A stretch of 64,000 nt of DNA. It comes from Candidatus Ryanbacteria bacterium CG10_big_fil_rev_8_21_14_0_10_43_42. GTDB taxonomy: Bacteria; Patescibacteriota; Minisyncoccia; Ryanbacterales; 2-02-FULL-48-12. Shown piece by piece: positions 4,491 through 44,148 of the stretch; position 1 is the first letter of the stretch, and each line of letters begins with the position of its first letter. The stretch lies in contig PFEF01000006.1 in the NCBI GenBank assembly GCA_002793915.1, positions 97,368 to 161,367 of the forward strand, written 5' to 3'. A program made the translations under genes and the position numbers. The notes under the pieces were generated by a model. It was not told where the DNA came from and ran no database searches. It saw nothing but the letters and a program-made list of their open reading frames with translations.

Positions 4491-5180
4491 ATGAAAGACG
4501 TAACTAAACTTGAAGAAATTCTTGGGGTAACTTTTAACGACAAAGATCTTTTAAAATCAGCCCTGACGCATCGATCGTATTTAAATGAAAATCCGTCATG
4601 GCCGCTTCCGCAAAATGAGCGTCTTGAGTTTTTAGGTGACGCTGTTTTGGAACTGGCGGTAACGCGTTATTTGTATCTTAATTTTGAGAATCCGGAAGGC
4701 GAGCTTACGAGTTATCGTGCGGCATTGGTAAATTCTATCATGCTTACGCGTTTGGCGGCCGATCTGAATCTTAACGATTTTTTACTTCTTTCTCGCGGTG
4801 AAGCCAAGGATGAAGGCAAGGCGCGCATGTATATTTTGGCAAATACGGTGGAAGCCGTTATAGGTGCAATCTATCTGGACGGGGGGTATGATGTTGCGGA
4901 GGCCTTCATTATGCGTGTCCTTATTCCTTATATGGATGAGGTTCTGGAAAAGAAATTATATCGGGATGCAAAAAGTTATTTTCAAGAAAAAGCACAGGAA
5001 GTTGAAGGTATTACGCCTACGTATCATGTTATAAAAGAATGGGGACCTGATCATGCCAAAAACTTTATTGTGGGAGTATATATCGGAGATAATCTTGTTG
5101 CCGAAGGAGAAGGGTCGTCAAAACAAATTGCGCAACAGCATGCCGCAGAAAATGGTATTAAGATAAAGGAGTGGGAGTGA
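4491..5180 (+). CDS. rnc: ribonuclease III
   Basis: RNase III signature ERLEFLGDAVLELAV and a C-terminal dsRBD-like region. Confidence 0.85.
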   Translation: MKDVTKLEEILGVTFNDKDLLKSALTHRSYLNENPSWPLPQNERLEFLGDAVLELAVTRYLYLNFENPEGELTSYRAALVNSIMLTRLAADLNLNDFLLLSRGEAKDEGKARMYILANTVEAVIGAIYLDGGYDVAEAFIMRVLIPYMDEVLEKKLYRDAKSYFQEKAQEVEGITPTYHVIKEWGPDHAKNFIVGVYIGDNLVAEGEGSSKQIAQQHAAENGIKIKEWE

Positions 5181-9608: not shown

Positions 9609-9744
9609 TGGACGCACACTCATATTTTGCAAGATCGTTGAAAATCTATTCTATTGTTCCGGTCGAACACGGTGCGCACTTTTTGTGTGCTGTGTTCATA
9701 TTCTGAATATTATAATGAGTAATATCACTATGGTATTTGGATTT

Positions 9745-11215
<1,471 letters not shown>

Positions 11216-11344
11216 TAAGGATATACATCTCATGCTAACGGCATGAGTATGGTCGTTCGAATATTTGCGGATATATGGCAAGTATTTGAAACGGTTTGGT
11301 CGTCACCAATCAGAAAACGACTCCGGAACAATAGAATAGGCGTT

Positions 11345-11386
11345 CAACACAAAAAGCCGCCGTCAAACGGCGGTTTTTTGTGTTGG
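11345..11386 (+). terminator. long perfect hairpin with a T-run in the 16S-tRNA spacer
   Basis: caacacaaaaagccgcc / ggcggttttttgtgttgg, a 17 bp stem with a 7 nt loop. Confidence 0.4.
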
Positions 11387-11544
11387 TGGGAGTAAGTAAA
11401 TGGAATGCAGGAAATGGCAATAATCGTTTATGGGCGGTTATCATATTGAAAAATAGAGTAAAACAGTGTAGGCTATGTTCTATAGATACGGGTGTTCAGC
11501 TCAAGCCGGTTTAATCCGTTCTGAACAAGTGCCTTATAATTAAT

Positions 11545-11618
11545 GGGCGTGTAGCTCAGCTGGTTAGAGCGCGTCACTGATAATGACGAGGTCGGAGGTT
11601 CGAGTCCTCCCACGCCCA
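11545..11618 (+). tRNA. tRNA-Ile (anticodon GAT)
   Basis: Cloverleaf read by hand: acceptor gggcgtg/cacgccc, anticodon loop ctGATaa, T-loop ttcgagt. No encoded CCA. Confidence 0.9.
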
Positions 11619-11628
11619 CAGAATGGAT

Positions 11629-11717
11629 TTAGAGCGGAGAAGAGTAATAGGAATTACTCTTCTCCTGATAACTAGAAAATACCTGTGATATTTTCTAGAG
11701 GTCGGAGGTTCGGAGTA
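11629..11717 (+). pseudogene. degenerate tRNA-Ile-derived element: a copy from the D-arm 3' side to the T-loop, with both anticodon-stem halves replaced by perfect hairpins
   Basis: It shares ttagagcg, ctgataa and a 14 nt exact aggtcggaggttcg with the upstream tRNA-Ile. In place of the anticodon-stem halves it has inserted hairpins gagaagagtaat/attactcttctc and ctagaaaata/tattttctag. Confidence 0.5.
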
Positions 11718-11792
11718 ACGTAATCCAAGTGGACATAAAGATACACACAGTAATAAATGCGCTTCTTGCGTATTTTTTTGTATACTATATCT

Positions 11793-12764
11793 ATGAAGCA
11801 GAATAAATTAAAAATTGGTGTTGTAATGGGCGGACCGTCGAGCGAGCATGATATTTCATTAATGACGGGTAGGAATGTTATAGATACTCTTCGCGGATTA
11901 GGGCATACGGTAACACAGGTATATGTTACCAAATCGGGCAATTGGCTCTATAACAACAGTGCTTCCGCTTTCGATCCGGTAGAGATATGCGCACGTCATG
12001 ATGTTATGTTCAATGCTATGCACGGGGAATATGGTGAGGATGGGCAGGTACAGCAAATTTTTGACAGATGCAATGTGCGGTATACGGGATCTCGCACAAC
12101 GGCGGCGGCACTTGCGATGAACAAAATAATCAGCAAAGATATTTTTAATAAGGCGGGAATCCTTACGCCAAGAGCCGTAGCGTTCGAGCGGAATAATTTT
12201 GATATGAAGGAGGCTCTTTCTCGCGTGCATCTCATGACGGCACCTCCCTGGGTAGTGAAGCCCGCAAGTCGCGGTTCTTCCGTGGGTGTTACCATAGCAC
12301 GCACACTTCCGGGGTTAGCCGACGGTTTGGAAACCGCATTCGGGTATGATAATCATGTTGTAGTGGAAGAATTTATAAAAGGACGGGAGATTACCTGTGG
12401 AGTACTTCAGGATTTTGCCGGAGAGGATGTGCACGCGCTTCACCCGCTGGAGATTATTCCGCCGGACGGAAAGTTCTTTGATTATGAAGTAAAGTATGAT
12501 GGTTCTACAAAAGAAGTTCCAGCACCGTTCTTCGGCGAAATGCTTAAAAATATTAAGGCACAGGCCGTTGCGGCTCATAATGCGCTCGGATGTCGGCATT
12601 ATTCCCGTACGGATATGATTATTAAGGGAACGAAAATATACGTTTTGGAAACGAATACCCTACCGGGACTCACAAGCGAATCGCTTTTCCCGAAACAGGC
12701 GCGATTAGCTAAAATGGAATTTCCGCAGTTACTGGAACATTTGGTGCGTTTGGCAACGGCATAA
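11793..12764 (+). CDS. ddl: D-alanine--D-alanine ligase
   Basis: MKQNKLKIGVVMGGPSSEHDISL N-terminus and an ATP-grasp pattern. The ORF track starts at 11757, but the ATG at 11793 fits the family N-terminus. Confidence 0.8.
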   Translation: MKQNKLKIGVVMGGPSSEHDISLMTGRNVIDTLRGLGHTVTQVYVTKSGNWLYNNSASAFDPVEICARHDVMFNAMHGEYGEDGQVQQIFDRCNVRYTGSRTTAAALAMNKIISKDIFNKAGILTPRAVAFERNNFDMKEALSRVHLMTAPPWVVKPASRGSSVGVTIARTLPGLADGLETAFGYDNHVVVEEFIKGREITCGVLQDFAGEDVHALHPLEIIPPDGKFFDYEVKYDGSTKEVPAPFFGEMLKNIKAQAVAAHNALGCRHYSRTDMIIKGTKIYVLETNTLPGLTSESLFPKQARLAKMEFPQLLEHLVRLATA

Positions 12765-12792
12765 CAGATCTTTTACAAGGAGGAAGTGTTTT

Positions 12793-13536
12793 ATGAGACG
12801 CATGCGATGGCAGAGTTGGGCTTTGGGATTTTCTCTTTTATATATTTTAGTTAAGGGATTTGGTTCATCTGAATATGCGAGTATGGTAACGCCCGCACGC
12901 TTTTATATACAGTCTTATTTTGTAGAAACGCGCCTGGTTGTATACGAAGGGGAATACTGGCGTGTTGTACTACACGAAAAGCAGAATCCGCATTTCTTGC
13001 GGAGCATCGTGCGTTTAAAACGGGTATGCGAATCTCCCGTATGCCTAACGTCTGCTGAAAGGCGAGAACGGGATGAGATAGAACTCGTACTACATACTTT
13101 GGTACTTAGATATGGCGCCACCTACACCAACTTTATGCGTCTTATGAATAATGCTTATCGTTCGCCGATTCCTATGCCGGTAATGCATTATCACTTTATT
13201 CCGCGCTACAAAACCCCATTTTCTTTTGGAGAGATATATTTTCATGATAAGGCGTATGGGCGTCATTATTCTGAAAACGAAGAAAAGCCGGTTCCTCCCG
13301 CACTTATGCTTCTCATAAAAAATATTGTAGGGAAAGAATTTAAAGACCGTATGCCAAAGCCATCCGCAGAGGTGGCTTTTTTCTTGAAAAAAAGGAAGAA
13401 CCATGGTATGGTTTTTTGTAGATTTCAAATTAAAATATTTCGAAATTTACGAGGGCGAATTTCGGTAGCTCATCTGGTAGAGCGGTTTGATATGCCCCCA
13501 GCATATCAAACTTGCACTGCGGAGGGTGGAAAGTAA
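12793..13536 (+). CDS. hypothetical protein (possible HIT-like fold); the 3' end runs into the tRNA-like element
   Basis: 247 aa ORF with no family recognised with confidence. The last 27 codons are translated from the tRNA-Ala-like sequence, so the true C-terminus or the gene's integrity is uncertain. Confidence 0.3.
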   Translation: MRRMRWQSWALGFSLLYILVKGFGSSEYASMVTPARFYIQSYFVETRLVVYEGEYWRVVLHEKQNPHFLRSIVRLKRVCESPVCLTSAERRERDEIELVLHTLVLRYGATYTNFMRLMNNAYRSPIPMPVMHYHFIPRYKTPFSFGEIYFHDKAYGRHYSENEEKPVPPALMLLIKNIVGKEFKDRMPKPSAEVAFFLKKRKNHGMVFCRFQIKIFRNLRGRISVAHLVERFDMPPAYQTCTAEGGK

Positions 13537-13566
13537 CGGGGTTACTTTCCACGGTTCGAGTCCTAG
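13465..13566 (+). pseudogene. degenerate tRNA-Ala-derived element with two perfect hairpin insertions
   Basis: Its D-arm gtagctcatctggtagagcg, the cttgcactgcgg segment and the T-loop ggttcgagtcc are identical to tRNA-Ala 150 nt downstream. The 5' anticodon-stem half is replaced by tttgatatgc/gcatatcaaa, and gtggaaagtaa/ttactttccac is inserted before the T-arm. No acceptor pairing is present. Confidence 0.5.
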
Positions 13567-13611
13567 GAGGGTAAAAGACTTTAATAATAGGTTTAGAGAC
13601 GTAAATAATAT

Positions 13612-13684
13612 GGGCCCGTAGCTCATCTGGTAGAGCGCCGCACTTGCACTGCGGAGGTGGCAGGTTCGAGTCCTGTCGGGTCCA
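13612..13684 (+). tRNA. tRNA-Ala (anticodon TGC)
   Basis: Acceptor gggcccg/cgggtcc with a G3:U70 pair, anticodon loop ctTGCac, T-loop ttcgagt. Confidence 0.9.
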
Positions 13685-13812
13685 CATCGTAAATCTCAAT
13701 AACCGTTTTTAACCTCCCGCTGTCCGCGTGCCGGCAAGGCGGAAAGAGGGAGTTTTTGGTTTGCTTAGCCGCTTTCTTGTTTACAAAACCCCTTAAATCC
13801 GATATGATTTAA

Positions 13813-14071: not shown

Positions 14072-15190
14072 ATGAACACCCAAACCTTAAACATGGGCCT
14101 TAACAAGGCTGGTCAAGCAAAGAAAGATGAGTTTTATACTCAGCTCGTTGATATTGAAAAAGAGTTGAAGCATTACAAAAATCAATTTCGAGGCAAGGTT
14201 GTTTATTGCAACTGCGACGATCCGTTTGAGAGTAACTTTTTTAAATATTTCGCTGGTAATTTTAATGCACTGGGATTGAAAAAACTAATTGCGACGAGCT
14301 ACAAGCCGTCACCTATTGCAAATACACAGCTTGGACTATTTGGTGACGAAGAAGTGCTGACAAAATCCAAAGGCCGTCCAAAAGTGACTGCCAATAAATT
14401 TATCATCAACGAAGTTGATGATTTTGATGGCGACGGTGCTTTTGATTTACGTGATGTCGCTGAACAGCTCAAAGCAAACAAAAACAACGAATGGGCACCG
14501 TTAGATAGCGAGGGAGATTTTAGAAGTCCAGAAAGTATAGAGTTGCTTAAACAAGCTGACATTGTAGTGACAAATCCGCCATTTTCACTCTTTCGTGAGT
14601 ATGTAGCCCAACTTGTTGAATACGATAAGAAATTTTTAATACTTGGGGACCAAAACGCCATAACATACAAGGAGATTTTTAAGTTAATTAGCGACGATAA
14701 AATATGGCTCGGTTACGATAATGGAGGCACGAAATGGTTTCAAGTCCCGATGGATTACGACATTCCAACTGAATCAAGAAAGAAAATCGTAAACGGCGTG
14801 AAGTATTTCAGTATGGGAAGAATTATGTGGTTTACAAATCTTGAGACCACAAAACGTCACGAGAGACTGACTTTGTATAAAACATACACCGCACAAGAAT
14901 ATCCTAAATACGACAACTATCCTGCAATAAACGTTGATAAAGTCTCTGATATTCCAATGGACTACGATGGAATAATGGGTGTCCCTATTACTTTCATCGA
15001 TAAATACAATCCAGAGCAGTTTGAAATATTAGGCATTACTGATAGACAAAACACGTCTGGTCTCCGAACGAAAAAATATACAGAAGCGGACAATCCTAAA
15101 TACAACGACTTAAATGCTCGTAGCGTGATAAAAACTGGCAATACTTACAAAGCTGTGTACGCGCGACTTTTAATAAGAAATAAAAAATAA
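14072..15190 (+). CDS. N6-adenine DNA methyltransferase (NPPF motif; EcoRI-methylase-like family)
   Basis: VVTNPPFSL is catalytic motif IV of amino-methyltransferases. The N-terminal DEFYT..CDDPFES region is as in the EcoRI-methylase family, recalled from memory. Translationally coupled to its neighbours. Confidence 0.55.
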   Translation: MNTQTLNMGLNKAGQAKKDEFYTQLVDIEKELKHYKNQFRGKVVYCNCDDPFESNFFKYFAGNFNALGLKKLIATSYKPSPIANTQLGLFGDEEVLTKSKGRPKVTANKFIINEVDDFDGDGAFDLRDVAEQLKANKNNEWAPLDSEGDFRSPESIELLKQADIVVTNPPFSLFREYVAQLVEYDKKFLILGDQNAITYKEIFKLISDDKIWLGYDNGGTKWFQVPMDYDIPTESRKKIVNGVKYFSMGRIMWFTNLETTKRHERLTLYKTYTAQEYPKYDNYPAINVDKVSDIPMDYDGIMGVPITFIDKYNPEQFEILGITDRQNTSGLRTKKYTEADNPKYNDLNARSVIKTGNTYKAVYARLLIRNKK

Positions 15191-15192
15191 TT

Positions 15193-16296
15193 ATGAAAAT
15201 TGAACTACACAGAATCAAAATACGTGAGGTAGTCAATGGCTACGCAGACAATCATGAAGAAGGTGTGGTTGCTTATGGTGGCAAGCTCGATATTCGACCT
15301 AAATATCAACGTGAATTTGTCTATAAAGATAAACAGCGCGATGCGGTCATTGATACCGTAAAGAAAAATTTTCCGCTCAATGTGATGTATTGGGTAAAAA
15401 GCGACGACGATAGCTTTGAGGTGTTAGACGGACAGCAAAGAACAATCAGTATCGGGCAATTTGCGAATGGAGATTTTTCGGTGGACTTTAATGGTCGCAC
15501 TGCTATGTTCCACAACCTTACTAAAGAAGAACAGGGGCAAATCCTCGATTACGAATTGATGGTGTACTTCTGTGAAGGAACAGATAAGGAAAAGTTAGAT
15601 TGGTTCAAGATTATCAACATCGCAGGCGAACGTCTTACCGATCAAGAATTGCGAAATGCTGTTTACACTGGCACATGGCTTTCGGACGCAAAACTTAAGT
15701 TTAGTAAATCTGGCTGCGCGGCATATCTTTTGGCAAATGATGGCGGCGCATTGCTTACAGGTTCACCAATTAGACAAGAGTACCTAGAAACTGCACTCTC
15801 GTGGATCAATAGCGGCGAAATTGCCGAATATATGGCAAAGCATCAGCACGACAAGAATGCCGATGAGCTGTGGAAGTATTTCCAAAATGTTATTGCGTGG
15901 GTGCGTCAGACATTTCCGAACTATCGCAAAGAAATGGCGCACGTAAATTGGGGCGAGTTGTACAACCAATTCAAGGATAAAAAGCTAAACGCCAAGAAAC
16001 TTGAAACAGAAGTTGCAGAATTTATGAAAGACGAAGATGTAACAAAAAAATCTGGTATCTATCCGTATGTTTTGACGCGAAATGAGCGGCATTTAAATAT
16101 CCGTTCATTTACTGACAATATGAAGCGAGAGGCGTACGAGAGGCAGAAAGGTATTTGTGCATTCTGCAAAGAAAAGTTTGATATTTCTGATATGGAAGCT
16201 GATCACATTACCCCTTGGCATGAGGGCGGCAAAACTAACGCAAAAAATTGCCAGTTGTTGTGCAAAGACGATAACCGAAGGAAATCTGGAAAGTAA
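15193..16296 (+). CDS. DUF262 (ParB-like, DGQQR) domain fused to a C-terminal HNH endonuclease
   Basis: LDGQQRTISIGQF is the DUF262 hallmark. The C-terminus CAFCKEKF...ADHITPWHEGGKTNAKNCQLLCKDDNRRK is an HNH motif. Its start overlaps the methyltransferase stop (taattATG). Confidence 0.7.
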   Translation: MKIELHRIKIREVVNGYADNHEEGVVAYGGKLDIRPKYQREFVYKDKQRDAVIDTVKKNFPLNVMYWVKSDDDSFEVLDGQQRTISIGQFANGDFSVDFNGRTAMFHNLTKEEQGQILDYELMVYFCEGTDKEKLDWFKIINIAGERLTDQELRNAVYTGTWLSDAKLKFSKSGCAAYLLANDGGALLTGSPIRQEYLETALSWINSGEIAEYMAKHQHDKNADELWKYFQNVIAWVRQTFPNYRKEMAHVNWGELYNQFKDKKLNAKKLETEVAEFMKDEDVTKKSGIYPYVLTRNERHLNIRSFTDNMKREAYERQKGICAFCKEKFDISDMEADHITPWHEGGKTNAKNCQLLCKDDNRRKSGK

Positions 16297-16306
16297 CACT
16301 AACACC

Positions 16307-19300
16307 ATGAGGCTACCTCCCCAAACAATACGAACACTGTTAGAGGCAATTTTTTGGGGATCTGCTGTTTCGTTTACCTTTATTCTTGGATCCGCTATTG
16401 GATCATGGTTTTCGTTGAATATTCTCCCAGACTATTCATGGTTGATTACTCGTAAGGGCGAGGCATTTTATATTTTTGTATTCGCTCTTTTATTCTCTTA
16501 TCTTTACTTTCGAGATTTTCTACAAGTAGTATGGAAGGTCATAAAGAGTTCGAGATTTGATATTTTTATTGCGGCAGGATTAAGTGCATTGGTGGTCTTT
16601 AGCAATAAAAATATACTTTCTACATACATACAGGAGCATGTAATGGAACTAAACAGCGACAGCGTATTACTTTTCTTTATTATTGTATTTATTTTGTCGC
16701 TATCATGCGTACTGTATGTGATACTGCAAATGTTTAACCGCAGAAAGAAAGTGGACTCAAAATTTGCAAATGATAACCCAATTAGGGATTCCGAAGGCGA
16801 TCTCCTGGATTTTAGTACAAAAGCAAATTCGTTCGCAGAGAATATCTTTCATGCTTCACAGGGTAAGGGTTTAGTGTTTGGTGTAGATGCCCCTTGGGGA
16901 TCTGGTAAGTCATCATTTTTAAATCTCTGTAAGAGGTATTGGGAAATCAAACATAAAAACGAGTTAATTGTGTACGAATTTAGTCCCTTACACTATTCAA
17001 CAGATGCTAATTTACTTGAGAGATTTGTGGATGGTCTAATAAAAGAAATACAAAAGAATGTTTTTATTCCTGAGATACGCCCACTTTTTTCTCAATATTC
17101 TAAGCTCATCAAGATAGTAAATGGATTTAGTATTTTTGGGGTAAAAATTCCAGAATTTGCTAGTAGGCGCACCATTAACGATGTACATAATGATTTAGAG
17201 TGTGCACTAAATGGAATCAATAGGAGAATAATCGTTATTGTAGACGACCTAGACCGCATAGAATTAAAAGAGATTAAGAACGTATTGTTTGCAATACGTG
17301 AAAGTTTTAAATTCCCCAATATTTCGTATGTCTTATGTTACGACACAGAGAATATAAATGCATTGGAGGCAGATACGCCAGAGATTGAGACGGTGAATGA
17401 ATTCCTGGAGAAATTCGTCAATATTAAGATAAGTATTTTCCTCGATAAGAAAAACCTAGAGAATTTCGTTTCAAAAGAATTGAAAAAGGTAATTGAGGAC
17501 AAAACAACAGATCCAGAACTTGTTGCTGTCGTATTAAGCGGACTACGCGACATATTTCAATCACCTGAATTTCATCGTTATACGTCCTTTGTCGGAGACA
17601 TTAGAAAATTGAAGCGACTTGTGAATACGGTGGTTCTTTTAGAGTTGTATAAAGTAAACTTCGATAAAGCAGATATTGATAAGTTTGATTTAGCTCATTT
17701 ACTACTGATTTATATTAATTATCCAAGTATTTTCAGAAAAATTTATAACACCGAAACTGCAGGTGGTTATGGTTTTTTCTCTGCAGTTGGTCCCTATGAC
17801 AGTGAGTTTTATCCAAAAGATAAGAAGAGAAACAATGGAGAAAGGAGCGACACATATGAAAATTCTGATGTATACAACGAATATCTAGAGGACTTAACAG
17901 ATAATCAAAAGTTTCTCATTGAGCAGATATTTAATGTCACTAGGCGACTTAAGCGAGCAAAAAATAATGATAGTGCAAACCACTACATCAATAATGAAGA
18001 TTCATATCGAAAGATAGACAGTGTATCGGAAGACATAAAAACTTCCCTGGCATGTTTCAATGGTGACAAATTTACTGGTTCTGGTCGCAATCTAGAAGAT
18101 TATTTGCGTTTAATTGCTCATCTAGCGCCGCCAGAAGAAGAAAAGCAATTTGCACCTTTCAAAAACTGGCGAGACAAGATCATTAGCGAAGATATAACTA
18201 TAGAACAACTTTTTAATCAACCAGAATTTTCTGTTGAACTTGGCGAGCAAAAGCGACAAAAACTTTGGCGTCTCATTGTAAACAACACAAGGAAACTGAA
18301 TCAAAATGTTGCTGGTAATTTAATAAGGTATCTGACACAAAATATATCTAAATATTCCCTGTTTGAAAACGAGGTTCTTGGCGTAGGACTACGTCATCAT
18401 GATCTTCCTTATTTTTTGGTACGACTGCTTAATGATGCTGGATATAAAGGTAGCATGAATGGTAATAATACGGAGGAAAACATCAAAGAAATCGCTGATT
18501 GGATTTTCGGTGAAGACACCCACAAAGATGAAGGAATACTAGACGCCTTGTTAGAAGATGAGCGAGGTATTCTTGGTCTATATGATTCACTTAGTTTGAG
18601 ATTGATCTGCTGTTCCGATAGAGGTGGCGATATTTTCAACGTATCTAGAGCAATAGCAAAACACGGTAATAAAGAAGCTCCTACTGCGGGGGACACGAGA
18701 ATCATTGTAAAAGAAGAAATGCGTGAAATTTCACAGAAAATTTTTGGTGTGTTTAAATCACGATACATTGACAAAAAGATTAACATTTTTTCGGAAGTTC
18801 AAAAGTTGTCTTTGGATAATATAACGGGAGAATATTCCACTTATGTGCGAAATCAAGTGAAAGGCGGTGTTATATCTGAAGATAAGTTACAGGCAGATGT
18901 TGAATATACAAAATTTAATGCTTTAGGTTTTATTGTTTACCAGCTAGGTGATGACCAGATAAATCACGGGGTTGGTTGTGGTCTTTATGATCCTCTCGGA
19001 AATGCTGACAAAGGAATGATCAAAAACTTGATGAATAAGTATCTATTTGAGAGGTGCTTTAATCCGACAACCAGTGAGAATAATTATGAGAATCTTTTAA
19101 GTTTGCTTTTGAGGAATATTCCATTTGATGCTCTCAGGGAAGATCATTTTGGTAAAATTCCTGACTTTAAGTTAAAAACGATTGTTGGTGTTCTTGATAT
19201 ACAAACTCTCTCTGAATTTTGGAAGGAACATAGAGAAAAAATCAAGAAACTAAACTTTGAGAATTCAGGTAAAAAAATATTTATGGGAACACGATATGTA

Positions 19301-19414
19301 AATTCAGATTCTGAGGATATTTTTGCGTCCTATCAAAACGACTTGCCACGTGTATATAAGGCACTCGATGATTATATCGATAACCCTACTGGCAAAGGGG
19401 AGTCGCCCGCATAG
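16307..19414 (+). CDS. KAP-family P-loop NTPase with an N-terminal 4-5 helix transmembrane region
   Basis: Walker A GVDAPWGSGKSSFLNL and Walker B IIVIVDDLDR within a KAP-like region, preceded by about 180 aa of transmembrane helices. The ORF track begins at 16157, but the ATG at 16307 sits just after the upstream stop. Confidence 0.7.
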   Translation: MRLPPQTIRTLLEAIFWGSAVSFTFILGSAIGSWFSLNILPDYSWLITRKGEAFYIFVFALLFSYLYFRDFLQVVWKVIKSSRFDIFIAAGLSALVVFSNKNILSTYIQEHVMELNSDSVLLFFIIVFILSLSCVLYVILQMFNRRKKVDSKFANDNPIRDSEGDLLDFSTKANSFAENIFHASQGKGLVFGVDAPWGSGKSSFLNLCKRYWEIKHKNELIVYEFSPLHYSTDANLLERFVDGLIKEIQKNVFIPEIRPLFSQYSKLIKIVNGFSIFGVKIPEFASRRTINDVHNDLECALNGINRRIIVIVDDLDRIELKEIKNVLFAIRESFKFPNISYVLCYDTENINALEADTPEIETVNEFLEKFVNIKISIFLDKKNLENFVSKELKKVIEDKTTDPELVAVVLSGLRDIFQSPEFHRYTSFVGDIRKLKRLVNTVVLLELYKVNFDKADIDKFDLAHLLLIYINYPSIFRKIYNTETAGGYGFFSAVGPYDSEFYPKDKKRNNGERSDTYENSDVYNEYLEDLTDNQKFLIEQIFNVTRRLKRAKNNDSANHYINNEDSYRKIDSVSEDIKTSLACFNGDKFTGSGRNLEDYLRLIAHLAPPEEEKQFAPFKNWRDKIISEDITIEQLFNQPEFSVELGEQKRQKLWRLIVNNTRKLNQNVAGNLIRYLTQNISKYSLFENEVLGVGLRHHDLPYFLVRLLNDAGYKGSMNGNNTEENIKEIADWIFGEDTHKDEGILDALLEDERGILGLYDSLSLRLICCSDRGGDIFNVSRAIAKHGNKEAPTAGDTRIIVKEEMREISQKIFGVFKSRYIDKKINIFSEVQKLSLDNITGEYSTYVRNQVKGGVISEDKLQADVEYTKFNALGFIVYQLGDDQINHGVGCGLYDPLGNADKGMIKNLMNKYLFERCFNPTTSENNYENLLSLLLRNIPFDALREDHFGKIPDFKLKTIVGVLDIQTLSEFWKEHREKIKKLNFENSGKKIFMGTRYVNSDSEDIFASYQNDLPRVYKALDDYIDNPTGKGESPA

Positions 19415-19468
19415 CGGGCGGTTTGCGCGCGCACTGGGAGGGTGGGGCAAACGCAAAGACATTTTTTG
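19404..19468 (+). terminator. GC-rich tandem hairpins ending in a T-run; the KAP gene stop codon lies in the first loop
   Basis: cgcccgc-atag-gcgggcg, then gtttgc..gcaaac, then attttttg. Confidence 0.4.
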
Positions 19469-19542
19469 CCTACTTTGTTATAATTCACAAAAAGCGGACA
19501 TGTCGACCCGCTCTCATATAAATCAACTAACCTTTTATAACT

Positions 19543-19887
19543 ATGGCTAAAAAAATTTCAACTGAAGAAGTAAAGAGTAAATTGGATAAAAACGAGAACT
19601 TTTATCTCATTGATACATTGGCGGCCAACAGCTTTGAGGCGCGCCACATCCCCGGAGCAAAAAGCATGCCGTATGGAACTGATTTTATAAAACAATTTGA
19701 GCAAGTAATTAACGCCCAGAAAGACGCAGAGATCATAACTTATTGCGCCTCAAATGGATGTCAGCTATCAGCGTTGGCCGCCAATGCTCTTGAAGAAGCC
19801 GGCTATACGAATGTTGGTCATTATGTTGACGGTCTCGCAGGTTGGCAAAACGCAGGCCATAAATTTGAAGGAGAAGCGACGAAATAG
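19543..19887 (+). CDS. rhodanese-domain sulfurtransferase
   Basis: Active-site loop YCASNGCQ in a 114 aa single-domain protein. Confidence 0.7.
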   Translation: MAKKISTEEVKSKLDKNENFYLIDTLAANSFEARHIPGAKSMPYGTDFIKQFEQVINAQKDAEIITYCASNGCQLSALAANALEEAGYTNVGHYVDGLAGWQNAGHKFEGEATK

Positions 19888-19985
19888 TTTGGATTAAGGG
19901 AGTAAAATTATGCGCACACTGGGCGAGTGTGGCAAGCACAATATGGTAAACTACAAGGGTCGATTAATAACTAACCATAAAAACT

Positions 19986-20186
19986 ATGAAAACTCTAAAA
20001 TGTGATATGTGCGACCATGAAGCACAGGGCGAAACGTTTGGGGAGTGGATGAATAATCTCAAGCCACATTATACCGAGGCGCATGCTGAAGTTATGAAGG
20101 GAAAGGCAGATCTAACTCCCGAACAACAAAAGACGGAAATGCAGAAGTGGATGGACGAGAACAAGGCAAGATTCGAAGCCGCGTAG
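19986..20186 (+). CDS. small DUF1059-like protein
   Basis: 66 aa, MKxLKCDMCDHEAQGET...HYTEAHAEVM pattern resembling DUF1059 (recalled from memory). Confidence 0.35.
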   Translation: MKTLKCDMCDHEAQGETFGEWMNNLKPHYTEAHAEVMKGKADLTPEQQKTEMQKWMDENKARFEAA

Positions 20187-20304
20187 TTTTGCCGCACAAA
20201 CATCGCCGAAGCCACAGAGCGAACACGAAGCAAACACCGAGCTCCATTTAGTAAATACCCGGAAAAGTCCTTATTTTAAATCATGTCATGCCTCTTTTGA
20301 TCCT

Positions 20305-20326
20305 CTATATCACTAGATTGATATAG
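20305..20326 (+). promoter_or_regulatory. palindrome ctatatca-ctagat-tgatatag upstream of the fic gene; candidate operator
   Basis: Perfect 8 bp inverted arms, about 160 nt upstream of the Fic start. Confidence 0.25.
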
Positions 20327-20487
20327 TAAAAATGCTTGATTTATCAGTGGATACTAGGCCAGTTTTTTAGGGCTGATTATGTCGGCTTTTTGCACCAAGT
20401 CGTAATACAAATATCCTTATTGCACTTTTTGTGGATATCTGGTAATATGGGAATACGTGTTTCAACTTAGACAAAACAAGTAAAACT

Positions 20488-21651
20488 ATGGAGAACAAAG
20501 CACAGCAAAATGACAAATTTATGGCAGGTACTCACAAAAAGCACTTCTGGGGTAAGGATTATGAATACCAGAGTTTTTTGCCGTCTCCGGTAAATCATCC
20601 CTACGAGTGGCAAGATAAAAGAATTCCTGTTCTCCTTGAAGAGGCAATTAGACTTGTCGGAGAATTAAATGCTTATTCCATCCTTGTGCCGGATGTAGAT
20701 TTTTTCATTCAAATGCATGTGCGCAATGAAGCGGTAAAATCCAGTCGCATTGAAGGCACTCGCACTGGTATGGATGAAGCTGTTTTGCCGGAAGAAGAAA
20801 TCTCTCCGGAAAAAAGAGATGACTGGACTGAGGTACAAAATTATATTGCCGCAATGAATAAGAGTATTGCCCGATTGAATGAGCTCCCGATCTCGATGAG
20901 GCTTTTACAAGAAGCTCATAAGATTTTATTGTCCGGCGTTCGTGGTGAACACAAACAACCGGGAGAAGTTCGCACCGCACAAAATTGGATTGGCGGCACA
21001 AGTATTCAGACCGCCGCTTTTATTCCACCCCATCCGGAAGATATGGGAGAGGCCTTAAAGGACCTTGAATTTTTTTGGCATAACAAAGGATTGAATATGC
21101 CCCACTTAATCAAGATGGCTATTTCGCATTATCAGTTTGAGACGATTCACCCGTTCAATGACGGCAACGGGAGAATTGGCCGTATGCTCATCGGGCTTCA
21201 TCTCATCGAGCTTGGAATTTTGCGAAAACCAACCCTGTATCTTTCGGACTTCTTTGAAAGAAATAAAGGTGCGTATTATGACGCGCTTACTTTTGTGCGA
21301 GAGAGGAATGATCTGGATCAATGGATAGTCTTTTTCCTCTCGGCAGTTATTGAGACGGCCAAAAAAGGCAAAGATACGTTCGAGAAAATTATCGATCTGC
21401 GTGCTCGCTACGAGAAACAAACTATGGAGCTCGGACGCCGGGCAAAACTGGCTCATAAACTTTTATTACAGTCATTTTCCATGCCTGCTTTTAAAGTTTC
21501 TGATGCATCAAAGTATCTTAACGCTTCAAACACGGCGACCAACACCCTTGTCGGCGAAATGGAGCGCGTTGGTATTCTTAAGGAAATTACCGGTTTTTCC
21601 CGTAACCGGATTTTTGTCCTGCACGAGTATCTGGAACTTTTTAAGAGATAA
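20488..21651 (+). CDS. fic: Fic-family protein (AMPylator/toxin-like) with an intramolecular inhibitory motif
   Basis: Fic motif [12 protein letters not shown], an N-terminal SSRIEG ([ST]xxxE[GN]) inhibitory helix, and a C-terminal winged-helix-like tail. Confidence 0.85.
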
Positions 21652-23461: not shown

Positions 23462-24511
23462 ATGGAAAAATTGATAATTTATAATGGCGTATATATGGAA
23501 TCTGTAAAAAATACCGATAAAAATATACACGCCGTCTTTGAAGGGGGCGGCGTAAAAGGGACGGGACTTGTAGGGGCCGTGCAGGTAACGGAGGATCACG
23601 GATATATATTTGACCGTGTCGCGGGTACTTCGGCGGGTGCTATTATAGCCGCTCTTATAGCGGCCGGTTATACGGCAAGCGAAATGAAAGAAATTATGTT
23701 TGCATTGGATTATAGGAAGTTTAAAGATAAGGGACTGGGAGACAGTATACCGCTTGTAGGACCTCTTGCGAGTTTGCTTATTACAAAAGGTATTTATGAA
23801 GGAGATTATTTTGAAAACTGGTTAAGAGATTTGCTCTTACAAAAGAATATCAGAACTTTCAAGGATCTTTTGATTGATGAAAACATCAAAGACTCGACGT
23901 ACAGATACAAGCTTCAGGTCATAGCGTCGGATGTTTCGCGCGGAAGACTTATTACACTTCCGCATGACGTGAGCGAATATGGTTTTGTACCCAATGATTT
24001 TGATGTTGCAAGAGCTGTTAGAATGAGTATGAGCATTCCTTTTTTCTATAAGCCGGTTATCATGAAAAATGCAAAAGGGGACGCTTCATTCATTGTAGAC
24101 GGAGGAATTTTAAGTAATTATCCCGTTGGAATTTTTGATCCCGTGGGAAATACGAGTCCTCTCTGGCCAACATTCGGCTATAAACTGGTGGAACCGGATG
24201 AATATAAGCCACACAATATCAACGGTCCGGTAAGCCTTTTAGCGGCACTGTTTTCGACCATGATGGAGGCGCATGATGCAAGATATATTAAGGATACGAA
24301 TTTCCAGCGTACGATACCCATAGAAACGCTGGGTGTCCAAACCACCGATTTTGATACGACCATAGAGAAAAAACAGGAGCTTTATGAAAGCGGAAAAAAG
24401 GCCGCAGAGGAATTTTTCCAAAAGTGGAACTTTGAAGAATACAATCAAAAGCGTGGAAAAGGAGAAAGCCGCAGACAGCAAGTTTGGAAATCGAAAGAAG
24501 AGGCGGGATGA
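23462..24511 (+). CDS. patatin-like phospholipase
   Basis: GGGVKG oxyanion motif, GTSAG serine-nucleophile motif and DGG. Confidence 0.8.
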
Positions 24512-28618: not shown

Positions 28619-29899
28619 GTGGAAACTCAATTGACAATTTCTCTTTTTAAGGCGGCGGTAACTACATGGTTCATTTGGTTGCCTGTTTTGTCGTTCCTTG
28701 TTCTTGTGGTTACATGGCTTGATTATAAGCGCACGATATTTATTGCCGATGTTGAGTACGTTTTTTTGGAGGTACGCGTGCCTCGTGAAATTAGGCGCGG
28801 ACCCAAGGCAATGGAGCAGTTATTTACCTCTATTTACAGTATTCTTAACTCTACGGTTCCGAGCCATATTATTGACGGTCTTTTATATGGAGAGATAGCG
28901 CTTACTATGTCGTTTGAAATTGTTTCCATTGGCGGAGAAGTACATTTTTTTATTAAGACGCCTAAGAAATTTAAAAATATTCTCGAAGCAAATTTGTTTG
29001 GATGTTATGCCGATCTGGAAATTGCCGTGGTTCCCGATTACACCGAGCGTATGCCGAGTACGTATGCCGACCTTGCCGAAAATAATTATGAGTTGTGGGG
29101 ATCGGAGCTTGTCTTGATGACGGACGATGTTTATCCCATTCGTACATATGTGGAGTTTGAATCCATGGATGAATATGCTCAGTTGGATCCCATTGCCACG
29201 CTCGTTGAAATGTTGAGTAAGTTGCAGGTGGAAGAGGAGCTTTGGATACAGTTTATTATTGTTCCGGCGGGTATGGAATGGCGCGCAAAAGGGCAAAAAG
29301 TGGTTGAAGGGTTGCGTACTCAGTCAAGCAAAACAACTATAATAGGAGGAGAGAGTACGGTATCCATGGTGGATAGAACACCCGGACAAACAGATATTAT
29401 AAAAGCAATAGAGCGTAATATTTCAAAGCCGGGATATTATACCGTTATTCGCTATGTTTATATAGCACCTAAAAGTATCTACAATAAGGATCTTGCACGA
29501 ACCGGTATCCCAAGCGCGTTTAATCAGTATCAAGCACAAACACTAAATGCCTTTCGGCATGATTTTAGTGTACGCACGCAAACAATATGGCATAAGCATC
29601 CTTATTTTTTCCCCACCTGGCGGCTTTTACAAAGACGAAAGTCTATTTACGATTCATTTATAAAGCGTTCATTTCCGGAAGCGCCATTCTTTAAGCAATT
29701 ATTCACCGGACAAACACTGTCGGCGGATATTCCCATTTTTAACACAGAAGAACTGGCAACGTTGTATCATTATCCAACAGATATTGTTCTTACCGCGCCG
29801 TCAATGAAGCGCGTGGAGTCGAAGAAGGTGGGTCCTCCCGCGGGACTTCCTATTTTTCAGGAAACGGGAGATAGTATTCAGGGTTTTAAGAATAAATAA
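28619..29899 (+). CDS. hypothetical membrane-anchored protein (first gene of an ATPase module)
   Basis: 426 aa with an N-terminal transmembrane helix and no family recognised. Tightly spaced with the two downstream genes. Confidence 0.4.
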   Translation: METQLTISLFKAAVTTWFIWLPVLSFLVLVVTWLDYKRTIFIADVEYVFLEVRVPREIRRGPKAMEQLFTSIYSILNSTVPSHIIDGLLYGEIALTMSFEIVSIGGEVHFFIKTPKKFKNILEANLFGCYADLEIAVVPDYTERMPSTYADLAENNYELWGSELVLMTDDVYPIRTYVEFESMDEYAQLDPIATLVEMLSKLQVEEELWIQFIIVPAGMEWRAKGQKVVEGLRTQSSKTTIIGGESTVSMVDRTPGQTDIIKAIERNISKPGYYTVIRYVYIAPKSIYNKDLARTGIPSAFNQYQAQTLNAFRHDFSVRTQTIWHKHPYFFPTWRLLQRRKSIYDSFIKRSFPEAPFFKQLFTGQTLSADIPIFNTEELATLYHYPTDIVLTAPSMKRVESKKVGPPAGLPIFQETGDSIQGFKNK

Positions 29900-29908
29900 A
29901 GAAACGAT

Positions 29909-30424
29909 ATGGATGGATCGGTGTCATATACCATACTTGCTGTCATAAAATCACTTGCGCTTCTTATTACGTTATTTTCATGGGTAATGATTGTTTATGC
30001 TATTATGAAAAAGCGGGAATTTATGGAAGCTCGTCCCGGAGACATGCTGGCGAAGAATACGGAACCAAAAAAAGATCCCGATTTACAGAATAATATTCGT
30101 ACCCAAAAAATTGCCCGCGAAGGATGGACGCGTATCACCGGCAAGATAGATGCAACAGAACAAAAAGATTTTAAATCGGCAATTATTGAAGCGGATGCAT
30201 TGGTTGATGCCGTACTAAAAGCGTATAATTATTCGGGTGAAACCATGGGAGATCGTATGAAATCCATAAAAAAGGATGAACTGCCAAGTCTGGATGATTT
30301 ATGGCAAATACATAAACTGCGCAATACTGTTGCGCACCATCCTACGTACGAAATTACCTCAAAGAGGGGAGAAAGTGCTCTTAAAACATACGAAAAAATA
30401 CTGCGGGAATTGGGGGCAATATAA
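29909..30424 (+). CDS. hypothetical small membrane protein
   Basis: 171 aa with an N-terminal transmembrane helix (LAVIKSLALLITLFSWVMIVYAIM), 9 nt after the previous stop. Confidence 0.4.
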   Translation: MDGSVSYTILAVIKSLALLITLFSWVMIVYAIMKKREFMEARPGDMLAKNTEPKKDPDLQNNIRTQKIAREGWTRITGKIDATEQKDFKSAIIEADALVDAVLKAYNYSGETMGDRMKSIKKDELPSLDDLWQIHKLRNTVAHHPTYEITSKRGESALKTYEKILRELGAI

Positions 30425-30455: not shown

Positions 30456-32219
30456 ATGGATGACAGCGTAGCCTATTTTGCAAAAACAAATTTCCGCAAT
30501 AAAGAGCGGATGTTTGGTATACAAAAAAAAGACCGCCGCCAGCACATGTATGTTATCGGACAGACCGGTACGGGGAAATCGACGTTTCTTAAAAATATTG
30601 CGCTTCAAGATATACGATCGGGGCATGGTATTTGTATTGTTGATCCGCACGGAGAATTTGTGGAAGAAGTTCTCGAAATGATTCCATCGGAGCGCATTCG
30701 AGACGTTATTTATTTTAACCCGGCCGATAGTAATAATCCGGTAGGTTTTAATGTCCTCGAAGTGCCGGAACAGACAACGAATACGGATTACCGTACCATT
30801 GCCGCCTCGGGTCTTATGGGGATTTTTACCAAAATTTGGGCGAATGTCTGGTCATCGCGAATGGAATATATTCTCAATAACGCCGTACTTGCCCTTCTTG
30901 AAATGCCGGGCGCAACGCTTTTGGGTATTCAACGTATTCTTATCGATAAAGAATACCGCAAAGAAGTGCTCTCTCATGTGAAAAACGATCAAGTGCGCGC
31001 TTTTTGGACGCAGGAATACGATTTATGGGAGCCGCGATTTCGTAATGAAGCCATAGCGGCCATTCAAAACAAAGTGGGACAATTTTTATCTTCTCCCCTT
31101 ATTCGTAATATCGTAGGACAGCCAAAAACATCACTTAATCTGTATGATGCGATGAATCAAGAGAAGATTATTTTGGTAAATGTATCGAAGGGGCGTATCG
31201 GGGAAGATAATTCCCAGCTTTTGGGAGCTATGATTATTACCAAAATTCAGTTGGCAGCCATGGAGCGTGTACAAATTCCTGAAGATGATCGGAAGGATTT
31301 TTACTTATATGTTGATGAGTTTCAAAATTTTGCAACGGATTCATTTGCGTCCATTCTTTCCGAGGCGCGTAAATATCGTCTGAATATTATCATTGCTCAT
31401 CAATACATCGGACAACTCGTTACCGAAACAAGCACCAAAGTGCGGGACGCTGTTTTTGGAAACGTGGGCACAATGGTTACGTTTCGCGTGGGTGCTACGG
31501 ATGCGGAGTTTTTGGAAAAAGAATTTGCGCCGGAAGTAACCATTCAGGATTTAGTCGGTCTTCCTAATCATAATATTTTTCTAAAACTTATGATTAACAA
31601 TGTGCGGTGCGCGCCGTTTTCAGCAACAACTCTGCCGCCATTAGCTATTGATACCGAAGAGCGTACAGCGGAAAAAATAATAGAATATTCTCGAAAGACC
31701 TATGCACGTAATAAAGATGAGGTAGAAACGGAAATACGTGCACTAAGCAAGATAATTGATGCCATACCCCAGTCCAAGTCGCATAAGCCGATATCGCCTG
31801 TAAGGTCGGACCACGCACCTGCGCGTCCTGTTATCGTGCCTCGGCGAGAACCGCCCAAACAGCATGAGTCGTATTCTTCATCGCACGTAAAAAAGGAGAA
31901 GGAAGATGTTCCTGTTCCGCAACCAACAAAACCGGTAGAGCCCAAAAAAGTTCTTTCACTGGCATCTCTTCTTCCCAAAAAAGAAGAAAAGAATGACGCT
32001 ACTGATATAAGAAAAGAGTACACATCACGAAAGGAAGAAAAAAAGCCGGAACGGAAAAAGAGGCCGGCAGGTATGACAGATTTAAGAGAAGCTCTTCATC
32101 GCGCACTGCAAAAAAAGAATTCTCCTGTGCGGGAAAACACGCAAACATCTTCGTCAAAAGAAACAAAGCAAGAAGTGCGCGGAGAACGGCTTGAGCCCGG
32201 GCAAAGTGTAAAGCTGTAA
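30456..32219 (+). CDS. FtsK/HerA-superfamily P-loop ATPase (HerA/DUF87- or VirD4/TraG-like) with a disordered K/E/P-rich C-terminal tail
   Basis: Walker A GQTGTGKST, DPHGEF motif, Walker B YLYVDEFQNF and IIAHQ...QL motif. The last 160 aa are low-complexity. Confidence 0.6.
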   Translation: MDDSVAYFAKTNFRNKERMFGIQKKDRRQHMYVIGQTGTGKSTFLKNIALQDIRSGHGICIVDPHGEFVEEVLEMIPSERIRDVIYFNPADSNNPVGFNVLEVPEQTTNTDYRTIAASGLMGIFTKIWANVWSSRMEYILNNAVLALLEMPGATLLGIQRILIDKEYRKEVLSHVKNDQVRAFWTQEYDLWEPRFRNEAIAAIQNKVGQFLSSPLIRNIVGQPKTSLNLYDAMNQEKIILVNVSKGRIGEDNSQLLGAMIITKIQLAAMERVQIPEDDRKDFYLYVDEFQNFATDSFASILSEARKYRLNIIIAHQYIGQLVTETSTKVRDAVFGNVGTMVTFRVGATDAEFLEKEFAPEVTIQDLVGLPNHNIFLKLMINNVRCAPFSATTLPPLAIDTEERTAEKIIEYSRKTYARNKDEVETEIRALSKIIDAIPQSKSHKPISPVRSDHAPARPVIVPRREPPKQHESYSSSHVKKEKEDVPVPQPTKPVEPKKVLSLASLLPKKEEKNDATDIRKEYTSRKEEKKPERKKRPAGMTDLREALHRALQKKNSPVRENTQTSSSKETKQEVRGERLEPGQSVKL

Positions 32220-41594: not shown

Positions 41595-41630
41595 GAAAAA
41601 AGAGCCGTGCAATACGGCTCTTTTTTTCAA
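41595..41630. terminator. bidirectional rho-independent terminator (A-tract, agagccgt-gcaat-acggctct, T-tract)
   Basis: Read directly in the sequence, between convergent genes. Confidence 0.5.
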
Positions 41631-41707: not shown

Positions 41708-42445
41708 TTATTTATCTTCCTGTTTCTTTCGGAACGCTTTTACAATTTTCTCGAAATCGCCGGCGATGACATTTTCGATGTCGTGCCAATTTTTCTTGAT
41801 GCGGTGATCGGTTATACGATCCTGCATAAAGTTATAGGTGCGGATTTTTTCAGAACGGTCTCCCGTACCTATTTGGTCTTTGCGGCTTTGCGCCACGTCA
41901 CCAACATTTTTACGCTGTTCCTCCTCGTATACCTTTGCGCGCAATATGCCCATAGCACGTTCACGATTTTGGGTCTGTGACCGCTCCGCTTGAGAACGAA
42001 CTATAATGCCGGTAGGTTTATGTAAAATACGTACCGCTGTTTCCACCTTATTTACATTCTGGCCGCCCGCTCCTCCGGCACGTGAAAAAGTGACCTCAAT
42101 ATCTTCGGGCTTAATATCCATTTCCGCCTGTTCCACTTCGGGGAGTACGGCCACCGATATGGTTGAGGTATGTACGCGTCCCGATTTTTCCGTTTTGGGA
42201 ACGCGTTGTACTCGGTGCACGCCCGATTCATGTTTAAAATCTTCGTATACATTCTCGCCTCGAATAGCGAACACCACTTCTTTGTATCCGCCAAGGTCAT
42301 TGCCGGATTCATCAATTTTAGTAAGTTTCCATCCTTTTTTTTCGGCATGACGCATGTACATCTGCGCTAATTCGTATGCAAAAAGAGCGGCCTCGTTTCC
42401 GCCGGCGCCGGCACGAATTTCCATAATAATAGAGTTGCGTGTCAT
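41708..42445 (-). CDS. prfA: peptide chain release factor, RF1-like (PxT motif PKT), lacking the N-terminal domain 1
   Basis: GGQ motif ([11 protein letters not shown]), PKT tripeptide and an RF1-like C-terminus ([12 protein letters not shown]). Only 245 aa. The start is 50 nt from the rpmE stop, so no room exists for an N-domain. Confidence 0.75.
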
Positions 42446-42495
42446 GAGGGGACAGGGGTTAGATGAGTAGAGGCGGATTAATGTCGAGTGAGAAA

Positions 42496-42744
42496 TTATT
42501 TGCGTACTTTGCGCGCAGTCGTTTTCTTTTCTTTTTGTTTTGCGGCTTTTTCCACTTTAGTGCGGAATTTTTCAACGCGGCCCGCCGTGTCTACCAATTT
42601 TTCTTTTCCGGTGTAAAAGGGATGACAATTACTGCAGATTTCAACGCTTGTGGATTCTTTCGTGGAGCCAACGGAAATAACATTTCCGCATACGCAGGAA
42701 ATTTTTGCACCGGCAAAATATGGTGGATGAATATCCTTTTTCAT
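42496..42744 (-). CDS. rpmE: 50S ribosomal protein L31
   Basis: MKKDIHPPY..., a CxC...CxxCHPFYTG zinc ribbon, 82 aa. Confidence 0.85.
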
Positions 42745-43698: not shown

Positions 43699-44148
43699 AT
43701 GGTAGACGTAGCAGTACTTAAAGAACTACGTGATCGCACCGATGCGCCGATTAACCGGTGCAAAGAAGCGCTTGAAAAAGCAGAGGGAGATATTCAAAAA
43801 GCGATTATCCTCTTAAGCGAAGAAGGCGTAAAGGTGGCTGCCAAAAAATCCACCCGCGAAACGGGTACGGGTATTGTGGAAGCATATATACACGGTGCCG
43901 GACGTATTGGCGTTCTTCTTGAAATCCGCAGTGAAACGGATTTCGTCGCACGTAACCCGGCATTCAAGCAGGTGGCGCATGATATTGCTATGCATATTGC
44001 CGCTGCAAATCCCGCAACGACGGAGGAAATGAACGAGCAACCCTTTGTAAAGGATGAATCGAAAACGGTTGGCGATGTGATAAAAGAAACCATTGCCCGT
44101 TTTGGAGAAAATATACAGGTCACGCGATTTACCCGGTTTGACGCCTAA
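43699..44148 (+). CDS. tsf: elongation factor Ts (short form)
   Basis: N-terminal UBA-like VLKELRDRTDAPINRCKEAL. 149 aa. Confidence 0.8.
   Translation: MVDVAVLKELRDRTDAPINRCKEALEKAEGDIQKAIILLSEEGVKVAAKKSTRETGTGIVEAYIHGAGRIGVLLEIRSETDFVARNPAFKQVAHDIAMHIAAANPATTEEMNEQPFVKDESKTVGDVIKETIARFGENIQVTRFTRFDA

Follow-up and report, generated by a model that had tools for sequence, protein, structure and literature searches.

We identified a release factor 1 (RF1) that consists of domains 2, 3 and 4 only in a 64,000-nt stretch of genomic DNA (hereafter the window) from Candidatus Ryanbacteria bacterium CG10_big_fil_rev_8_21_14_0_10_43_42, a member of the Parcubacteria within the candidate phyla radiation (CPR). 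Domain 1 is part of the textbook bacterial RF1 and RF2. The short RF1 is a real natural variant, and its gene is intact and conserved. Judging from its sequence, the protein is most likely the working RF1 of the organism, in which a codon-reading superdomain (domains 2/4, with the tripeptide PKT) is combined with the catalytic domain 3 (with the GGQ motif). The features of the locus are as follows.

41596 to 41626, minus strand: terminator-like hairpin with a 13-bp stem and a T run, about 80 nt past the prfA stop (pattern match in a consensus scan)
41708 to 42445, minus strand: prfA, encoding RF1 with domains 2-4 only; 245-aa ORF from ATG to TAA
42059 to 42067, minus strand: GGQ, the peptidyl-tRNA hydrolysis motif, residues 127-129 (DNA, reverse complement GGC GGC CAG)
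42191 to 42199, minus strand: PKT tripeptide (the PxT 'anticodon'), residues 83-85 (DNA, reverse complement CCC AAA ACG)
42446 to 42495, minus strand: rpmE-prfA spacer, exactly 50 nt by ORF coordinates, without a match to the domain-1 HMM
42496 to 42744, minus strand: rpmE, ribosomal protein L31, 82 aa (Pfam PF01197, Ribosomal_L31), co-directional with and upstream of prfA

A previous sequence-only reading of this DNA had given the same ORF coordinates, which stand, but had not stated the strand, and the gene lies on the minus strand. It had described the product as a 245-aa RF1-type factor that begins at domain 2 and retains PKT and GGQ. The length and both motifs are confirmed from the DNA, and the domain-2 start is borne out by Pfam, NCBIfam and the PDB alignments. 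By exact database match, the protein is identical to P0001 / PJE64414.1 / UniRef100_A0A2M8KWV1 of Candidatus Ryanbacteria bacterium CG10_big_fil_rev_8_21_14... In Pfam, PCRF (PF03462) covers it from profile position 100 to 194 of 194 only (E-value 7e-43), while the RF-1 domain (PF00472) is complete (positions 2-116 of 116, E-value 1e-38), and the two follow each other in the canonical order, PCRF (domain 2) and then RF-1/GGQ (domain 3). The NCBIfam prfA model NF001859 is matched at positions 104-343 of 347 with 365 bits (cut-off 400), and TIGR00019 gives 355 bits (cut-off 423); these scores fall below the equivalog cut-offs because domain 1 is absent, and the protein is thus not a full-length prfA equivalog, a definition that includes domain 1. 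As the prfB model yields 231 bits, below both prfA scores, the protein is closer to RF1 than to RF2.

Alignment to RF1 structures (phmmer against PDB) equates residues 4-243 of the short RF1 with residues 105-344 of 354 in Thermus thermophilus RF1, 110-344 of 360 in E. coli RF1 and 87-319 of 342 in Thermotoga maritima RF1, in each case without large gaps. Since the alignment sets in at T. thermophilus residue 105, the protein begins exactly at the start of domain 2. With the resulting offset of 101, PKT is the equivalent of T. thermophilus P184-x-T186, and GGQ that of residues 228-230. In an alignment of 44 homologs, the decoding residues E18, Q80, P83, T85, H92 and T93 of the short RF1 are invariant, that is, the equivalents of T. 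thermophilus E119, Q181, P184, T186, H193 and T194, as is GGQ 228-230. We take the roles of these decoding residues to be those assigned after the RF1-ribosome structure of Laurberg et al. 2008.

The claim that an N-terminal domain could not be encoded upstream also holds. The 50-nt spacer separates prfA from rpmE, and a stop codon lies in the RF1 frame 45 codons ahead of the EIRAG motif, which leaves no room there for the approximately 105 residues of domain 1. No Shine-Dalgarno sequence is visible ahead of the prfA ATG in the window DNA, and the hairpin at 41596 to 41626 is probably the end of the rpmE-prfA transcript, as its sequence pattern suggests. The neighbours of the gene are rpmE, rpsB/tsf and dnaE, and the adjacency of rpmE and prfA is conserved across Patescibacteria.

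The same protein is encoded on contigs of four independent assemblies (ENA, two JGI samples, and Logan); the two JGI contigs carry an rpmE annotation 50 nt upstream, and on the other two the gene caller did not list rpmE. In two Ryanbacteria-like loci whose RF1 is 75-78% identical, L246 and L248, the gene order rpsB-tsf / rpmE-prfA-dnaE-thrS-miaA is retained. In L246, the rpmE stop and the prfA start overlap (TAATG), while the rpmE-prfA gap of L248 (9728 to 10000) is 273 nt long and is made up of about 3.5 copies of a 68-nt tandem repeat that contains stops in all frames. The 68-nt repeat unit (GGAAATCCCTCGCTTCGCTCGGGATGTCGAAGATACTGAACGCAGTGAACGTACTCAAAAATTCTTTT) has an internal dyad symmetry. 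Among the 120 closest clusters listed (90%-identity clusters, 64-88% identity), fewer than 20 residues precede the EIRAGAGG motif in 107, and PxT and GGQ are present in all 120. The named members of these 120 clusters are all Patescibacteria (Ryanbacteria, Niyogibacteria, Colwellbacteria, Paceibacterota and 'Patescibacteria group', these taxon names being database labels), and several of the clusters are found on contigs of 0.5-0.9 Mb. An AlphaFold2 model of the short RF1 (pLDDT 82, pTM 0.74) is of low confidence only at the GGQ loop and in the switch-loop region; it superposes on the compact RF1 1rq0 with a TM-score of 0.85 and an rmsd of 1.7-2.1 Å, and on the pre-accommodated ribosome-bound RF1 6orl with a TM-score of 0.84. 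Foldseek gave 42-49% sequence identity to the RF1 chains in PDB.

To trace domain 1 itself, we used an HMM of 108 positions built from 36 full-length RF1s of the genome scan, which detected all full-length control RF1s with E-values of 1e-21 to 1e-42. Neither the entire 64-kb window, translated in all six frames, nor the flanks of the other short-RF1 loci gave a match. The Patescibacterial loci fall into three states.

Full domain 1 (about 105 residues): L014, L022, L028, L031 and L051; whole HMM profile matched; about 440-500 nt from the rpmE end to EIRAG
Partial domain 1 (about 80 residues): many loci; HMM positions about 34-105 only; about 250-400 nt from the rpmE end to EIRAG
No domain 1: the window, L013, L015, L029 and L246; no HMM match; 51-139 nt from the rpmE end to EIRAG

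The same gradation is seen with the prfA model, which matches a protein with full domain 1 (P0090) at positions 5-343 and sets in at position 39 in one with partial domain 1 (P0091). In most loci of the series rpmE lies directly upstream of prfA. The less of domain 1 a locus retains, the shorter is the distance between rpmE and EIRAG, and the domain was therefore lost by deletion in place. In a rough neighbour-joining tree of the domain 2-4 core, the full-length Patescibacterial RF1s are basal and the domain-1-less RF1s form mostly one large group with a few longer sequences inside it, which suggests more than one loss of domain 1, the tree being crude and not robust enough for counting loss events. 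Most of the representatives listed after 50% clustering are full-length RF1s. Several others, among them P0375 and P0440, carry RF1 domains 2-4 at the extreme N-terminus followed by a PrmC_N match; instead of true fusions, these probably represent gene calls at contig edges or ones that read through from prfA into prmC. The gene for uL11 is absent from all the Patescibacterial loci retrieved.

The short RF1 can be compared with four kinds of known factors. It shares with canonical RF1 (e.g. T. thermophilus PDB 4v63 and T. maritima 1rq0) the colinear domains 2, 3 and 4, PxT, GGQ, the decoding residues and the predicted fold, and its position after rpmE matches that in Patescibacteria with a full-length RF1; however, it lacks about 101-106 residues, those of the L11- and RF3-contacting helices of domain 1. 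The best functional analogue is the engineered truncated E. coli RF1: according to the passages of PMC1586002 that concern Mora et al. 2003 (Mol Microbiol 50:1467) and Vestergaard et al. 2005, truncated E. coli RF1 and RF2 likewise consist of domains 2-4 only, retain peptide release at normal codon specificity in vitro and, in the case of RF1, support growth. These constructs are artificial and work in a host with RF3 and a matching ribosome, whereas the deletion in the window is natural, fixed and conserved in a clade. PrfH (RF-H; TIGR03072; PDB 9mor) also has no domain 1 and keeps GGQ, but its codon-recognition region is divergent, without PxT or SPF, and its gene is always paired with an RtcB gene. 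We rejected this identity, as the prfH model gives 82 bits against a cut-off of 167, and no RtcB gene lies near the short RF1 in the window or in the neighbourhoods of the matching loci. The rescue factors ArfB, ICT1 and mtRF-R resemble the short RF1 in their GGQ domain and reduced architecture, but are entirely devoid of the codon-reading domains 2/4, for which a C-terminal tail substitutes. A factor of the ArfB type (GGQ domain plus C-terminal tail, about 140 aa) was rejected as well, since the ArfB model reaches 50 bits (cut-off 100) and matches just the 35 residues around GGQ (107-141), and the codon-reading domain is complete.

We considered three other explanations of the short gene. One is that the short factor is an additional paralog specialised, for instance, in ribosome rescue or regulation, like PrfH or ArfB, and that a canonical full-length RF1 is encoded elsewhere in the genome. 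The RF1 score of 365 bits far exceeds those for PrfH and ArfB, and PxT and all the stop-codon-reading residues, absent in PrfH and ArfB, are kept; moreover, the gene sits in the same rpmE-prfA slot as the full-length RF1 of other Patescibacteria, the RtcB partner was not found nearby, and about 35 Patescibacterial loci carry one RF1 gene each, with no second release factor within 10 kb on either side. We thus consider an accessory role unlikely, even though the domain-1-less class-I relatives PrfH, ArfB and ICT1 are accessory factors (PMC1586002), the protein scores below the NCBIfam prfA cut-off, and the sequence covered amounts to about 79 kb, from a genome that measures 524 kb or more. Another explanation is a split RF1, in which a small protein encoded elsewhere supplies domain 1 and associates with the short RF1 on the ribosome. 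Such a split is conceivable, given that the three helices of domain 1 form a flexibly attached unit (PMC1586002), and the search covered part of the genome; nonetheless, the failure of the domain-1 HMM to match anything in the six frames of the window or around the other truncated loci, and the intermediates with a progressively shorter domain 1, which fit erosion rather than fission, make it highly improbable.

Finally, the truncation might be a pseudogene remnant or an artefact of assembly or gene calling, as chimeric joins and truncated genes do occur in metagenome-assembled genomes. The sequence-only reading had named two outcomes that would overturn it, a pseudogene beside a full-length RF1 elsewhere, and an N-terminal exon missed through an assembly error. 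A pseudogene is very unlikely, as 107 of the 120 clusters lack domain 1 and all 120 keep the motifs; a missed exon is equally so, given the agreement of the four independent assemblies and the rpmE-prfA overlap in L246. The arrangement recurs across different samples, upwards of 100 related clusters share this architecture and have invariant functional motifs, and the ORF is intact with a confidently predicted fold. With the four assemblies, the conserved clusters, the invariant residues and the superposing AlphaFold2 model taken together, a pseudogene or assembly artefact is not tenable, and we hold it to be exceedingly improbable.

We therefore return to the reading of the short protein as the working RF1. 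Domain 1 of RF1 on the ribosome touches the N-terminal domain of L11 and reaches toward the 30S beak, and RF3 binds it through its own domain 3, forming an L11-RF1-RF3 bridge that is broken upon ribosome rotation by RF3-GTP (PMC3677378). The sequence-only reading had assigned to domain 1 contacts with the L7/L12 stalk and RF3; the RF3 contact stands, but the other partner is L11 at the stalk base, not L7/L12 itself. In the passages of PMC1586002 on Mora et al. 2003 and Vestergaard et al. 2005, domain 1 is described as without effect on codon specificity and as dispensable for peptide release in vitro, and truncated RF1 as working in vivo; domain 1 is described there, on Mora et al. 2003, as required for stimulating nucleotide exchange on RF3. 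RF3 is missing from many bacteria, and the spontaneous dissociation of E. coli RF1 is slow, at about 10 s (PMC10287982).

In the mechanism that we propose, the short RF1 would bind to the A site at UAA or UAG and read the codon via PKT and the conserved α-5/β-sheet residues, GGQ would swing into the peptidyl-transferase centre and release the peptide as in canonical RF1, and the factor would then dissociate from the ribosome without RF3, either spontaneously or aided by RRF/EF-G. The reading and catalysis steps are suggested by the conserved sequence and the predicted fold. RF3-independent termination, already put forward in the sequence-only reading, is suggested by the missing domain and, by analogy, by the literature on engineered truncated release factors; as the short RF1 has none of the helices that would connect RF3 with the N-terminal domain of L11, it should not be recyclable by RF3. 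The loss of the L11 contact would plausibly lead to faster spontaneous dissociation, which an organism that grows slowly, has a reduced genome and probably lacks RF3 might tolerate. According to a reviewer comment in PMC1586002, the activity of E. coli RF1 is L11-dependent; thus, a domain-1-less RF1 may need compensating changes in the ribosome.

A tabulation of stop codons, which the sequence-only reading had proposed, indicates that UGA is a true but rare stop in this organism, ending 2 of 67 genes. Over about 79 kb (the window and the flanks L250 and L252), these genes end in TAA (50), TAG (15) or TGA (2); both TGA stops belong to the 55 long ORFs of the window, and none of the 12 further flank genes has one. 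At a GC content of 43%, TGA trinucleotides outnumber TAG by a factor of 1.8. The two genes are rnc (RNase III, 4491 to 5180), whose TGA stop lies at the usual C-terminus just ahead of smc, and a patatin-like gene (23462 to 24511). The smc gene, with a GTG start, begins 17 codons past the rnc TGA in the same frame. We rejected a recoding of TGA, since both genes end sensibly at TGA and long ORFs are uninterrupted under code 11. As short-RF1 relatives use TGA freely (9 of 27 genes in L005, 9 of 20 in L012 and 4 of 19 in L246), the short RF1 is not tied to the loss of TGA. A tblastn search of the 64 kb with RF1 detected no RF1 paralog in the window, and no RF2 or RF3 gene was found in the approximately 79 kb covered (the window and about 15 kb past its ends) of the genome of at least 524 kb. 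There is no Ryanbacteria RF2 among the 240 RF2 matches listed, and a blastp search against the ORFs of 84 loci returned one release factor per locus. RF2 may be weak or absent in this organism.

The same truncation occurs in the paralogous factor. When metagenome contigs were scanned for the RF2-specific motif WGxQIRSYV (at least 120 loci), one among the 120 loci listed, L245 (4.1 kb, 40% GC), was found to encode a domain-1-less RF2.

L245, 1291 to 2004: prfB, 237 aa, begins at domain 2 (MKQDRAILSIQAGVGGRDAEDW...), with SPF and GGQ present

This protein matches the prfB model at positions 115-349 of 353 with 352 bits (cut-off 370). Its gene starts 48 nt past a histidine-kinase gene and is followed by ftsE-ftsX, and no programmed frameshift site is present upstream of it. 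The programmed +1 frameshift of RF2 is normally located in the domain-1 coding region, and for this reason a short RF2 cannot carry it. Domain 1 is missing in 27 of the first 120 relatives of the L245 RF2 listed and in 89 of 107 further relatives from a profile search, while it is partial or full in the remaining ones. The named relatives are all Patescibacterial, namely, Taylorbacteria, Yanofskybacteria, Nealsonbacteria, Portnoybacteria and Azambacteria, and the domain-1-less RF2s include P0135 (MDP3697874.1, a 'release factor-like protein' of Taylorbacteria) and P0275 (KKR36658.1, Yanofskybacteria). Such RF2s match the prfB model from positions 112-115 to 349-351 of 353. The domain-1-less RF2s of 230-260 aa (within P0121-P0347), which are common in Parcubacteria, have SPFS or SPFN and LR(H/Q)TSF instead of the usual SPFD...RRHTSF. 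These RF2s belong to the same bacterial radiation as the short RF1 of the window, but are of the SPF type, reading UGA/UAA, and stand in another gene context (prfB-ftsE-ftsX in L245). Both class-I factors have thus been reduced in Parcubacteria, as seen in separate loci.

These results lead us to a broader and more tentative proposal, which we regard as possible but somewhat short of probable: in a large part of the Parcubacteria, both class-I factors may have shed domain 1 independently and repeatedly, and termination may be carried out by a minimal release factor of two domain modules without RF3, with RF1 doing nearly all the work in the present organism (97% of stops are UAA/UAG) and RF2 perhaps marginal or on its way out. 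If this is true, it would be a natural demonstration that the module of domain 1, L11 and RF3 recycling is dispensable. The role of domain 1, whether in L11 docking, RF3 coupling or the control of dissociation, has been debated since truncated E. coli factors were found to work in vitro, and the large and diverse set of domain-1-less factors fixed in nature offers a natural experiment on what ribosome and factor need (L11, RF3, RRF and stop-codon usage), as well as compact factors for structural and synthetic-biology work. While the parts, their chemistry and the dispensability of domain 1 at the bench are already known, its natural loss across a clade, in RF1 and in parallel in RF2, seems to have gone unreported. 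In the full-text literature searched, outside of which most subscription journals lie, we found no description of a domain-1-less RF1 or RF2 in CPR/Patescibacteria, nor is one given in a review of release-factor evolution covering CPR lineages (PMC6514570) or in an analysis of CPR ribosomes (PMC9297842).

We found no NCBIfam model dedicated to the short RF1. The GenBank names of short release factors vary among 'peptide chain release factor 1', 'PCRF domain-containing protein' and 'peptide chain release factor-like protein', so that a short factor may go under 'PCRF domain-containing' or 'release factor-like'. Both prfA and prfB are among the GTDB bac120 markers. Since the essential short factors score below the NCBIfam equivalog cut-offs and are vaguely named, marker-gene sets can look incomplete in Patescibacteria.

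The loss of domain 1 is in line with the domain losses seen generally in the translation machinery of these bacteria, and domain loss in housekeeping proteins looks like a general trend here. EF-Ts of the window (43699 to 44148) has only 149 aa, and SMC (5235 to 7454) only 739 aa. The ThrRS of a relative (L246, 14036 to 15268, 410 aa) is without the tRNA_SAD domain, whereas the 581-aa ThrRS of the window has it. A NusB-NUDIX fusion of 301 aa is encoded at 3514 to 4419.

Some further observations concern the remainder of the window. In the region 9744 to 13685, a 16S rRNA match of 1472 nt to a 1533-position model is followed by tRNA-Ile(GAT), and no 23S rRNA follows the 16S rRNA within the window; ddl (11757 to 12764) and an unknown ORF (12793 to 13536) lie between tRNA-Ile and tRNA-Ala(TGC). 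A low-GC (35-40%) defence-like island at 14072 to 21651 encodes an EcoRI-type adenine methyltransferase, a GmrSD/HNH endonuclease, a 1085-aa KAP-family NTPase, a rhodanese and a Fic protein. At 30456 to 32219 and 28619 to 30424, a TrwB/TraG-like type IV coupling protein adjoins two ORFs without a Pfam match, and this region may be part of a conjugation or DNA-uptake module.
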